A DNA stretch of 64,000 nt from a virus. Lineage: Duplodnaviria > Heunggongvirae > Uroviricota > Caudoviricetes. Position numbers: made by a program. Location: the IMG/VR virus record IMGVR_UViG_2939521961_000018, one strand, 5' to 3'. Shown here piece after piece: positions 3,001 through 6,000 of this stretch. Each line of letters opens with the position of its first letter. Within the stretch, counting starts at the first letter, position 1.

Positions 3001-6000
3001 TGTGCCATTATCGCCTGGTTCATTCGTGACCTTCTCGACTTCGCCGGACTAAGTAGCAATCTCGCTTATATAACGAGCGTGTTCATCGGCTACATCGGTA
3101 CTGACTCGATTGGTTCGCTTATCAAACGCTTCGCTGCTAAAAAAGCCGGAGTAGAAGATGGTGGAAATCAATAATCAACGCAAGGCGTTCCTCGATATGC
3201 TGGCGTGGTCAGAGGGAACAGATAATGGACGGCAGAAAACCAGAAATCATGGTTATGACGTCATTGTTGGCGGAGAGCTATTCACTGATTACTCCGATCA
3301 TCCTCGCAAACTTGTCACGCTAAACCCAAAACTCAAATCAACAGCCGCCGGACGTTACCAGCTTCTTTCCCGTTGGTGGGATGCCTATCGTAAGCAGCTT
3401 GGCCTGAAAGACTTCTCTCCCAAAAGCCAGGACGCTGTTGCGCTGCAGCAGATTAAAGAGCGTGGCGCTTTGCCGATGATTGATCGCGGTGATATTCGTC
3501 AGGCAATCGACCGTTGCAGCAATATCTGGGCTTCACTGCCGGGCGCTGGTTATGGTCAGTTCGAGCATAAGGCTGACAGCCTGATTGCAAAATTCAAAGA
3601 AGCGGGCGGAACGGTCAGAGAGATTGAGGTATGAGCAGAGTCACCGCGATTATCTCCGCTCTGGTTATCTGCATCATCGTCTGCCTGTCATGGGCTGTTA
3701 ATCATTACCGTGATAACGCCATGACCTACAAAGAGCAGCGCGATAAAGCCACATCCATCATCGCTGATATGCAGAAGCGTCAACGTGATGTAGCAGAACT
3801 CGACGCCAGATACACAAAGGAGCTTGCTGATGCTAACGCTACTATCGAAAGCCTTCGTGCTGATGTTTCTGCTGGTCGTAAGCGCCTGCAAGTCGCCGCC
3901 ACCTGTGCAAAGTCAACGACCGGAGCCAGCAGCATGGGCGATGGAGAAAGCCCAAGACTTACAGCAGATGCTGAACTCAATTATTACCGTCTCCGAAGTG
4001 GAATCGACAGGATAACCGCGCAGGTTAACTACCTGCAGGAGTACATCAGGACTCAGTGCCTGAAATAATTTTTTTGCAAATCACAAAGTCCATTTAATGA
4101 GCCTCGCGATGCGGGGCTTTTTTTACATCTGAATTTCACAGCGCATCTCACGCGCATATTACATCACCCGAGCCTTTCAGAAAGTTGAGCCTGAGAACTG
4201 CCGTATATGGTGGCGACCATCTCGGGGCGGCTTTTCTGTGAGACAGGCTCACTTTCTAAAAGGTAAAGACGCTATGAATCATCAATTGGCTAATCTCGAT
4301 TTCCGGGACATGGTGGTTGTTTCTGGTGATCGCGTGATCACAACCTCCCGCAAGGTAGCAGCTTACTTCGACAAGCAGCATCACCACATCATTCAGAAAA
4401 TCGAAAAGCTAGACTGTTCGGATGAATTTCTAACCAGCAACTTTTCGCGGGTTACCTATGAACACAAGGGTAATCAGTATGTTGAATATGAAATTTCCAA
4501 AGACGGTGCGATGTACATCATCATGTCGTTTACCGGCAAAAAAGCTGCCGCCATCAAAGAGGCGTTTATCAAAGCATTTAATTGGATGCGTGACAGGCTG
4601 ATGGAGATGGCTCACTCATACCAAAGAGAGCACAACGAGTTAATGCTGGAGTTCATGAAGGAAAAGGATGTTGCCAGTATGTCAGGACGCTTGCTGAACC
4701 GCTGGGGCAGGATCAAAAAACCGCAACTCATAGCAAGAATCAAAAGGCTTGAGCAGCAGGCGCAAATATCGATCCCCGGACTGCCAAAGTGACCATTCCA
4801 AAGCCCATCTACGGGTGGGCTTGATAATGAAACCGTGATTTACATCCCCACAATCCGGGTATGTAAAAGATAGTTCAGGCGAGAACAGATTTAACTAAAT
4901 CTGTGCACCACCAGTTACGGCAGTACCGCGAAACAACCCAAGCCAGTAAGTGGGGAAATAACACTGGCAGCCACTGAAAGATGAACCTCCAGCCTTATGG
5001 CAAAAAAGATTCTTTGTGGTGGCGAACTGATGGAAAGACATCCTAATCAAGCAACCACTCTACAGGGTCATAATTATGAACGACCAGCAAATCGAAAAAG
5101 AAATCGTTGAGAAAGGCAAAACGGCACCGCGAGTTACGCCAGACCATATCGAAGGAATTATTGCTCAGGAGGCATATTTCACAGCAGAGGATGGTGCCTT
5201 TGGCAAAGCCATAAAAGCGAAACATACTGGCGGAGAGGTAAACTACCAGTCGCACGAATCACTTTCTCTGCTGACGTTCTGCGTCCTGGTGCTGCGCAAC
5301 GGCTTCACCGTCACCGGAGAGAGTGCCTGTGCAAGTCAGGAAAATTTTGATGCAGAAATTGGTCGGAAGATTGCCCGGCAGAATGCTGTAAACAAAATCT
5401 GGATGCTCGAAGGTTACTTGCTGAAGCAGAAGCTAAGCGAACAGTAGTTATTACAAAAGCCATTCCTTACTGAGTGGCTTTGATAATGGCTTATACCCTA
5501 CACGGGATAACTTAACTGATATCCCTTTTAACGGATAAACGGAGCCAACAATGGCAGAGATTATTCCCATGACTGAAGAACAGAAATTCCAGTTAGAGAT
5601 TTACAAACTGGTCATGAACCAGAACGCAGCCGCGGAGGAAGCATTTCAGTTCATTGGCACTGACGAGCTGAAGCTTGAGCTATTCAAAATTCACTTCCAG
5701 TCAGGTGGCGCTAATTCAGATATCACGACCCGCACAATCGAAGCGGTGCGTAAATCGAAGGAAGCGTTAGACCTGTTCACTACCGGAGCGTAAACATGGC
5801 AACTCAAGGTTTCGACAACCCATCCAAATTCCGCGATGAATGGGATAAGCAAGCAGAAGGGAAATAATCAATATGGCGACTGAGAAAAAGAAAGGTGGTC
5901 GCCCCTCTGATTATATGCCGGAGGTGGCTAATGACATTTGCGCATTGCTTTCCTCCGGTGAGAGTCTGCGCAAAGTTTGCGAACGCCCAGGAATGCCGAG

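Follow-up and report, generated by a model that had tools for sequence, protein, structure and literature searches.

A double-pseudoknotted leader upstream of rha-type genes as a candidate cis-regulatory RNA family of lambdoid phages

The stretch of 64,000 nucleotides analysed here (the window) belongs to IMG/VR virus record IMGVR_UViG_2939521961_000018, a member of the Caudoviricetes. Between the Rz gene of a lysis cassette and a Rha-type gene (rha) it contains a segment that is, with a probability of roughly 0.7, the 5' leader of the rha message and a gate that acts in cis on the translation of late accessory genes. Judged from sequence comparison, the leader is one strand-specific RNA element, and its fold is richer than a single stem. 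Its candidacy as a new family of cis-regulatory RNAs in lambdoid phages is well supported. The element is about 135 nt long, and its natural variants span about 126-153 nt.

The leader locus extends from the Rz stop codon (4066-4068) to the ATG of the Rha-type gene (4274). An initial annotation of the window had described here a short motif, an inverted repeat of about 20 bp lying over the ribosome-binding site and two further copies of both, all of which are present. The motif GCGCATCTCACGCGCAT is found on the + strand at 4141-4157 and is repeated exactly at 59447-59463 and 60814-60830, giving three matches in the window against 0.29 expected by chance. The arms of the inverted repeat (4173-4185/4251-4263 and 4186-4193/4244-4251) form a stem, 4173-4193/4244-4263, whose 20 pairs are interrupted by a bulged U (4185) and a C.A mismatch (4178/4258). 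AAAGG (4259-4263), the Shine-Dalgarno (SD) sequence, is located at the end of the 3' arm and is followed after 10 nt by ATG 4274; the distal arm does cover the ribosome-binding site, as had been proposed. A covariance-model scan of the window returned exactly three strong copies, all on the + strand: copy 1 at 4130-4280 (134.6 bits), copy 2 at 59436-59584 (124.4 bits) and copy 3 at 60803-60952 (134.1 bits). On the reverse strand the model reaches 21-22 bits at most. The predicted folding energy is below that of shuffled sequence for copy 1 (z = -3.75) and copy 3 (z = -5.28), and the difference is weaker for copy 2 (z = -1.1).

The fold was compared across a family set of 112 copies (96 distinct, at 100 loci), assembled by pattern scans and covariance model R1, which was built from relatives of the window leader. 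Structure prediction and covariation analysis, a check recommended in the initial annotation, were run on these lambdoid relatives and revealed compensatory changes across about 96 distinct copies, including the rha leaders of phi80 and P22. The changes occur in P0, in P1-P4 and in two pseudoknots, PK1 and PK2. From 5' to 3' the elements are ordered as follows: terminator, P0 with PK2a in its loop, an A/U-rich spacer, PK1a, the P1 5' arm, P2a, P3a, P4, PK1b, P3b, P2b, PK2b, the P1 3' arm with the SD sequence and, 8-12 nt further on, the start codon. The copies have one of two backbones, type A (like copies 1 and 3) or type B (like copy 2).

P0 is a hairpin of 4-5 bp, GCGC-N6/7-GCGC, in which 99.7% of the alignment cells are paired, with pair types CG:92/UA:4 and GC:92/GU:3/AU:1. 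The GCGCAT motif, for which a protein-binding site had been considered, is an RNA hairpin and not a tandem or protein-binding DNA repeat, since its variants (UGCGU..ACGCA, GGCGC..GCGCC, GCGC..GCGU) keep complementarity and not repetition. PK2 is formed by the P0 loop and a 6-nt bulge of the long, bent P1-P2-P3(-P4) hairpin, located where P2 meets P1. At least seven classes of it exist: UCUCAC/GUGAGA (the window copies), UCGCA(C)/(G)UGCGA, UCACAC/GUGUGA, UUCACC/GGUGAA, UCCACC/GGUGGA, UCACCC/GGGUGA, UGCCC/GGGCA, CCGCA/UGCGG and ACGCCC/GGGCGU. In the model-made alignment, 96.3% of the PK2 cells are paired, the central pair being GC:38/UA:33/AU:16, against 11-75% in slid controls. PK1 joins 6-8 nt directly 5' of P1 to the complementary strand just 5' of the P3 3' arm. 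It occurs in at least eight classes: CCCGAG/CUCGGG (copy 1), CGAGAG/CUCUCG (phi80), CACAGAA/UUCUGUG (copy 2), CACCGA/UCGGUG (P22 type), CUCAGAA/UUCUGAG, CCAAGAA/UUCUUGG, CCAAAGA/UCUUUGG, CCAGAG/CUCUGG, CCAAGAG/CUCUUGG, CGCAGAG/CUCUGCG and CCACAGAG/CUCUGUGG. Pairing is about 98-100% at its six core pairs, each of which occurs in 2-4 types (for example, CG:52/AU:23/UA:7 and GC:31/CG:42/AU:10); when the partner is slid, the value falls to 35-59%. Pair types in P2 and P3 include AU:46/GC:42 and GC:48/AU:6/CG:6/UA:2, and the P4 variants GGU..ACC, GUC..GAC and GCU..AGC all retain the GGCG loop.

For the nested helices together with PK2, 84.7% of the cells are paired versus 28-50% with partners slid, and 24 pairs are changed on both sides versus 16 +/- 1.6 in shuffles (0 of 500 as high). 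Both pseudoknots were also subjected to a register-free permutation test, in which each 5' segment was scored against the 3' segment of its own or another copy. Cognate partners scored 6.27 for PK1 and 5.67 for PK2, compared with 4.27 +/- 0.17 and 4.48 +/- 0.13 for shuffled partners (0 of 2000 as high in each case). Pseudoknot classes are shared between the two backbone types, and the covariation is therefore not merely a co-inheritance of whole leaders. A DNA site or a coding region is excluded by the G.U pairs, the strand specificity and the length changes of 1-2 nt. In alignment A3, made with MAFFT only, raw PK1 pairing is 59.6%, and PK1 was then re-registered in each row; the low raw column counts arise because A3 mis-registers type A against type B. 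The same mis-registration accounts for the poor recovery by RNAalifold, which returned P0 and parts of P1 only (15 pairs) from the model-made alignment. An alternative hairpin, UCAG...CUGA, within the P1 5' arm was dropped, as it is not kept in the divergent copies L136 and L151. The overall interpretation in the initial annotation stood as regards a structured, conserved leader covering the SD sequence, whereas the nature of the motif was misjudged and PK1 and PK2 had been missed.

Certain unpaired bases are invariant: a GG ahead of the P3 3' arm, the C.A mismatch and an ACAGG junction. The mismatch, which lies between the SD helix and the remainder of P1, is retained in 94 of the 96 distinct copies (columns 58/161 of alignment A4) and persists even where the flanking pairs change; copy 3 has C-G instead (60850/60931). 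The P1 arms are 19-22 nt long and the continuous strand PK1b-P3b-P2b measures 17-21 nt in all variants, PK1a abuts P1 without a spacer, and PK1b is 1-2 nt from P3b. The matched lengths of P1 and PK1-P3-P2 point to two side-by-side helical stacks joined at both ends. This suggests that P1 lies beside the PK1-P3-P2 stack, with the P1/P2/PK2 junction as the top joint and the PK1a-P1 connection as the bottom joint. It is possible that the 5-bp SD helix and PK1 are unable to close simultaneously.

In every copy the SD sequence lies inside P1, and the start codon is 6-17 nt further 3'. The ribosome-binding site is formed by the five terminal pairs of P1 (CCUUU/AAAGG), beyond the conserved C.A mismatch. 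In a secondary-structure model at 37 °C, the SD sequence is unpaired with a probability of 0.024 in copy 1, 0.3 in copy 2 and 0.001 in copy 3. The initial annotation had stated that the segment resembles neither a promoter nor a terminator, and both halves of that statement are supported. No sigma-70-like promoter was found in 3900-4500 or near any of the three copies. No conserved terminator or attenuator was found inside the leader; the two hits of the copy 1 scan (4099-4119 and 4046-4063) are both upstream, and copy 2 has a weak hit at 59501-59520 on the P3/P4 region. The sequence after P3 is UUUUCU in type A and AUUCCU in type B, with no conserved U-run, and an internal attenuator is unlikely because type B is without one. 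The leader begins 14 nt past the terminator of the lysis cassette, and a T-run is present within about 30 nt upstream in 91 of the 112 related copies. Since the terminator is upstream and there is neither a predicted promoter nor room for one, the leader RNA is expected only on read-through transcripts.

The genes downstream are of the antirepressor type expected by the initial annotation in copy 1 (Phage_pRha) and copy 2 (P22_AR_N), and across the family they are diverse. By Pfam they encode Phage_pRha + ORF11CD3, P22_AR_N + ORF11CD3, AntA, KilA-N + P63C, Bro-N, ANT, HNH_3, T5orf172/MUG113 or a membrane protein; by record annotation an N15 gp59-like protein and TciA/TerB-like proteins also belong to the set. 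Each leader type, A or B, combines with several of these families. The leader is a generic module before varied genes, which makes autoregulation by the gene product unlikely. Coding explanations of the leader itself were rejected. An N-terminal extension from GTG 4238 is in frame with rha in copy 1 and phi80 and out of frame in copy 2, the leader lengths vary by 1-2 nt among variants, and a small open reading frame (ORF) from ATG 4207 (19 aa) is not conserved. In the phi80 record (L001, JX871397) the annotated rha coding sequence (L001 2593) begins at the GTG in the PK2 bulge, 36 nt 5' of the ATG.

Relatives occur well outside this genome. The initial annotation had named an absence of such conservation among the grounds for abandoning the idea; members were found in phi80, P22 and Shiga-toxin (Stx) phages. 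Searches with blastn matched three leader variants to 151, 75 and 31 phage records. The 151 records matched by the window segment include phi80 (immediately 5' of rha), P22-like phages and Stx1/Stx2 phages; phages of Klebsiella, Enterobacter, Hafnia and Pantoea are also represented, and BTP1 is among the records matched by the variants. The rha leader of P22 itself (NC_002371.2 39497-39646) is a family member via the L151:2181 type. A close copy is present, never annotated, in 904 of 5426 complete E. coli genomes, about one in six. A related-locus search with the Rha protein gave only copies 98-100% identical and no gain in diversity. Among the matches listed for the pattern GCGCAT-N5-GCGCAT-N8-25-CTTTCAG, most are chance occurrences in GC-rich genomes, and about 17 enterobacterial loci were useful, some of them labelled as metagenome-assembled genomes of other taxa.

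Several family members have features of their own. phi80 carries a second copy at 4084-4212, ahead of PHI80_66, which is shorter, lacks P4 and scores 80.4 bits; a minus-strand ORF, PHI80_65 (locus 4083-4382), overlies this copy and is unlikely to be real. A leader type placed before TciA/TerB-like 'tellurite resistance' genes (L136:2111-2254, L188:9579-9722) diverges most, scoring about 40 bits, and is also found in phage records JQ347801 and LC567835. In several PPompW prophages this type is interrupted after its first 58 nt by the IS110-family element ISEc20. L215:2509-2658 is a natural recombinant with P0 and linker from the L207 type (L207:591-743) and the core from the copy-2 type. It has one mismatch in each of PK1 and PK2 and may serve as a natural gauge of tolerance to mispairing.

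A mechanism can be proposed for the translational gate. Lambdoid late transcripts are Q-antiterminated. The leader would be transcribed only when RNA polymerase passes the lysis-gene terminator in the course of Q-antiterminated late transcription, and the leader RNA, once folded, would prevent or limit translation of the gene behind it. Interchangeable accessory genes share this module, which therefore probably responds to something common to the infected cell rather than to its own product. The elaborate tertiary fold points to recognition by a trans factor that alters access to the ribosome-binding site, for which a small molecule, a protein or a nuclease would be candidates.

Several points weigh against the translational gate. 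Control of translation is deduced from the position of the SD sequence, and P1 is very stable (minimum free energy -44 to -60 kcal/mol; type A SD unpaired 0.001-0.03), which is hard to reconcile with translation. No alternative (ON) helix supported by covariation was found. The compatibility of PK1 with a fully closed P1 in three dimensions is based on length arithmetic. The sequences compared are related by descent, recombination and mosaicism, which means that the counted cells do not represent independent events. For PK1, the register was fitted row by row in our own re-registered alignment, and a few copies (L215, L146, L020) have a single mismatch in PK1 or PK2.

The candidates for the factor, in order of preference, are a small molecule, RNase III acting on the two-turn P1, and a host or phage RNA-binding protein. 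A riboswitch, in which a putative ligand bound to the pseudoknotted core would lock or loosen the 5-bp SD helix and time the gene to a metabolic or infection-state signal, is a possibility that we hold tentatively. The SD sequence is part of the conserved fold in pseudoknot-type translational riboswitches. Here AAAGG lies in the P1 3' arm of all copies, where it could act as the expression platform of a compact, multi-helix core that has two tertiary pairings, covariation and the invariant unpaired GG, C.A and ACAGG bases and is independent of the downstream gene. The riboswitches SAM-II/V, preQ1-II/III, NAD+-II and guanidine-III likewise have a conserved pseudoknotted 5' fold with the SD sequence in a conserved helix; the leader differs from them in its much larger size, the 20-bp P1, two separate long-range pairings and the phage accessory genes downstream. 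It has no match to any known class in Rfam 15, its P1 is much longer and more stable than usual switching helices, and the downstream genes are not metabolic, hence there is no guess as to the ligand. It is conceivable that the leader represents a previously unrecognised ligand-sensing RNA class of lambda-like phages, a double-pseudoknotted aptamer that would read a signal of the host or of the state of infection, such as a nucleotide second messenger or stress metabolite, and time the translation of late antirepressor-like and nuclease genes. Processing by RNase III, which would cut P1, remove the anti-SD strand and activate translation or destabilise the message, is rather doubtful. RNase III needs about two helical turns of double-stranded RNA, and P1, held at 19-22 nt per arm with 20 near-continuous pairs, offers that length and is too stable for spontaneous opening. 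Precedents exist in phages: the lambda N leader, lambda cIII and the T7 early RNase III sites also place a long helix over the ribosome-binding site in a leader. Those structures, however, are plain hairpins or helices with two states, respond to RNase III or temperature, and have no covarying pseudoknots. Cleavage leaves the covarying conservation of P0, PK1, PK2 and P4 unexplained, and the bulge and C.A mismatch, both conserved, might just as well act as antideterminants. A translational operator recognised by a host or conserved phage protein that opens or closes the SD helix is also rather unlikely, even though the sharing of the module by unrelated genes speaks for it. The closest parallel is Mu com-mom, where a late, potentially harmful accessory gene has its SD sequence locked in a stem; the mom operator is a single hairpin opened by the phage protein Com, whereas the present module serves many genes. 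In PMC4936722 (citing Mozola and Friedman 1985 and Henthorn and Friedman 1995), the Rha proteins of phi80 and P22 are reported to be harmful only without integration host factor (IHF) and to be "regulated" by IHF. Both of these rha genes carry the leader, and a protein operator might be related to the old observation that phage growth suffers from Rha only where the host lacks IHF. Against this, IHF is a DNA-binding protein, no IHF consensus (one mismatch allowed) is present in or near the leader DNA, and no candidate RNA-binding protein was identified.

The other explanations are much weaker. A self-cleaving ribozyme or a processed, stable trans-acting RNA (decoy or sponge) late in infection, with SD sequestration as a secondary effect, is improbable. 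The transcript is expected to be abundant late, compact folds are common in phage-borne ribozymes, and pairing of a hairpin loop to an internal loop resembles the layout of the pistol ribozyme, in which a 5' hairpin with a 6-nt loop pairs to the internal loop or bulge of the next hairpin. In the leader, which is three times larger, the loop finds its partner on the other side of that hairpin; no ribozyme family, and specifically not the pistol model, matches even at E <= 10. The SD sequence of the gene always lies in the 3' arm at fixed spacing, which indicates action in cis. An RNA thermometer, whose SD helix would melt with rising temperature, is very improbable. The SD sequence does lie in a helix next to a mismatch, and the lambda cIII mRNA provides a precedent in this phage group, but in the secondary-structure model the unpaired probability for copy 1 rises only from 0.024 at 37 °C to 0.036 at 42 °C and 0.06 at 50 °C, copy 3 stays at <= 0.003, and neither Lambda_thermo nor another thermometer family matches. 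An element acting at the DNA level, either a protein-binding tandem repeat (GCGCAT x2) with a palindrome or a recombination linker between phage modules, is scarcely credible and is already largely refuted. In its favour, the GCGCAT units are 11 bp apart and mosaic copies lie at module boundaries, but the P0 variants are complementary and not repeated (CG to UA at columns 15/27), G.U pairs are tolerated, the score is strand-specific (135 versus 22 bits) and compensatory changes link segments 70-90 nt apart.

Rfam 15 gave no hit at the gathering threshold at 4130-4280, 59436-59584 or 60803-60952, and at E <= 10 the best scores on 4050-4330 were <= 18 bits, from unrelated families. No description of the leader was found in the literature searched, and the exact motif string occurs in none of those papers; an earlier brief mention of a stem-loop, as in Henthorn and Friedman 1995, is possible. 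The main text of Weinberg 2017 has no Rha, KilA or antirepressor motif, and the nine unnamed non-coding RNAs of the BTP1 transcriptome paper include none assignable to the leader site. Type I toxin mRNAs (hok, tisB, timP) share with the leader an intramolecular fold-back or pseudoknot control of translation; according to PMC11228461 and PMC13000454, their structure keeps the message translationally inert until processing or refolding. Their products are small toxins and they have an antisense RNA as partner, whereas no antisense partner or homology was seen for the leader. Control of ant by C4/isrK (P1/P7 immI type) likewise acts at the RNA level on antirepressor genes of temperate phages, but C4/isrK is a trans-acting antisense RNA of another family at another locus, and the leader gives no C4 or isrK match. 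Such a pair is present elsewhere in the window, where C4 antisense RNA (44643-44730, - strand, 78.8 bits) adjoins isrK (44755-44831, - strand, 57.2 bits). It is a P1/P7-type antirepressor antisense module and represents another, unrelated way of controlling ant-type genes through RNA in this window.

Genes of the rha, ant, kilA and bro types are among the commonest and least understood accessory genes of temperate phages, and are carried also by Shiga-toxin and P22-like Salmonella phages. A shared folded leader implies a common post-transcriptional control of these genes, undescribed even in phi80 and P22. It makes testable what signal operates the gate, why Rha harms only certain hosts and whether phages carry sensing RNAs of their own. 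A natural compact double pseudoknot with many compensatory variants is also attractive for structural work. Annotations need correction where the phi80 rha start lies inside the RNA, where a minus-strand ORF covers the second phi80 copy and at the unannotated E. coli copies.

Table 1. Coordinates of the leader elements, their copies and adjoining genes in the window
Feature	Position	Strand	Remarks
Intrinsic terminator closing the lysis cassette	4099-4127	+	GAGCCTCGCGATGCGGGGCTT + T-run; hairpin 4099-4119; terminator scan
P0 hairpin	4141-4155	+	Stem GCGC (4141-4144)/GCGC (4152-4155), loop AUCUCAC (4145-4151)
PK2 5' strand	4146-4151	+	P0 loop bases UCUCAC; partner 4238-4243
PK1 5' strand	4167-4172	+	CCCGAG, directly abuts P1 5' arm; partner 4221-4226
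P1 5' arm	4173-4193	+	CCUUUCAGAAAGUUGAGCCUG; anti-SD CCUUU (4173-4177), C4178 of C.A mismatch, bulged U4185
P2 and P3 5' strands	4194-4203	+	AGAA (4194-4197), 2-nt internal loop, GCCG (4200-4203)
P4 hairpin	4207-4220	+	AUGGU-GGCG-ACCAU; missing from short family variants
PK1 3' strand	4221-4226	+	CUCGGG, 1 nt ahead of P3 3' arm
P3 and P2 3' strands	4228-4237	+	CGGC (4228-4231), 2-nt loop, UUCU (4234-4237)
PK2 3' strand	4238-4243	+	Six-nt bulge GUGAGA; its GTG is the rha start in the phi80 record
P1 3' arm	4244-4263	+	CAGGCUCACUUUCUAAAAGG; SD AAAGG (4259-4263), A4258 of C.A mismatch
Rha-type gene	4274-4792	+	Phage_pRha + ORF11CD3 domains (Pfam)
Copy 2, type B backbone	59436-59584	+	Covariance model
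Copy 2 helices		+	P0 59447-59461; P1 59478-59496/59549-59568; SD 59564-59568
Copy 2 pseudoknots		+	PK1 59471-59477/59524-59530; PK2 59452-59457/59543-59548
Copy 2 downstream gene	59578-60147	+	ATG 59578; P22_AR_N/ORF11CD3 (Pfam)
Copy 3, type A	60803-60952	+	ATG 60946 opens a rha-like ORF
Copy 3 helices		+	P0 60814-60828; P1 60845-60865/60916-60936, perfect 21 pairs, without C.A mismatch
Copy 3 pseudoknots		+	PK1 60838-60844/60893-60899; PK2 60819-60824/60910-60915

Copies 2 and 3 are associated with the right prophage, whose lysis cassette looks decayed. The lysozyme is divided between two frames (58772-59122 and 59032-59307), Rz ends early (60301-60615), and an ORF in the Rz1 frame (60521-60769) has the C-terminus of Rz. 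Leader copy 2 and its P22_AR_N gene are inserted between lysozyme and Rz. Upstream of the late region of this prophage is a cluster of three tRNA genes (53857-54105, + strand) followed by a full-length match to STnc100 (55513-55714, + strand, 185.7 bits).

Other RNA features of the window include ALIL pseudoknots, the frameshift signals of IS3-family insertion sequences, at 12420-12536 (+ strand) and 30938-31054 (- strand). Each scores 121.5 bits, and the equal scores suggest two copies of one insertion sequence in opposite orientation. Two matches to sRNA-Xcc1, at 33825-33910 (74.5 bits) and 34358-34446 (69.3 bits), lie about 530 bp apart on the - strand.

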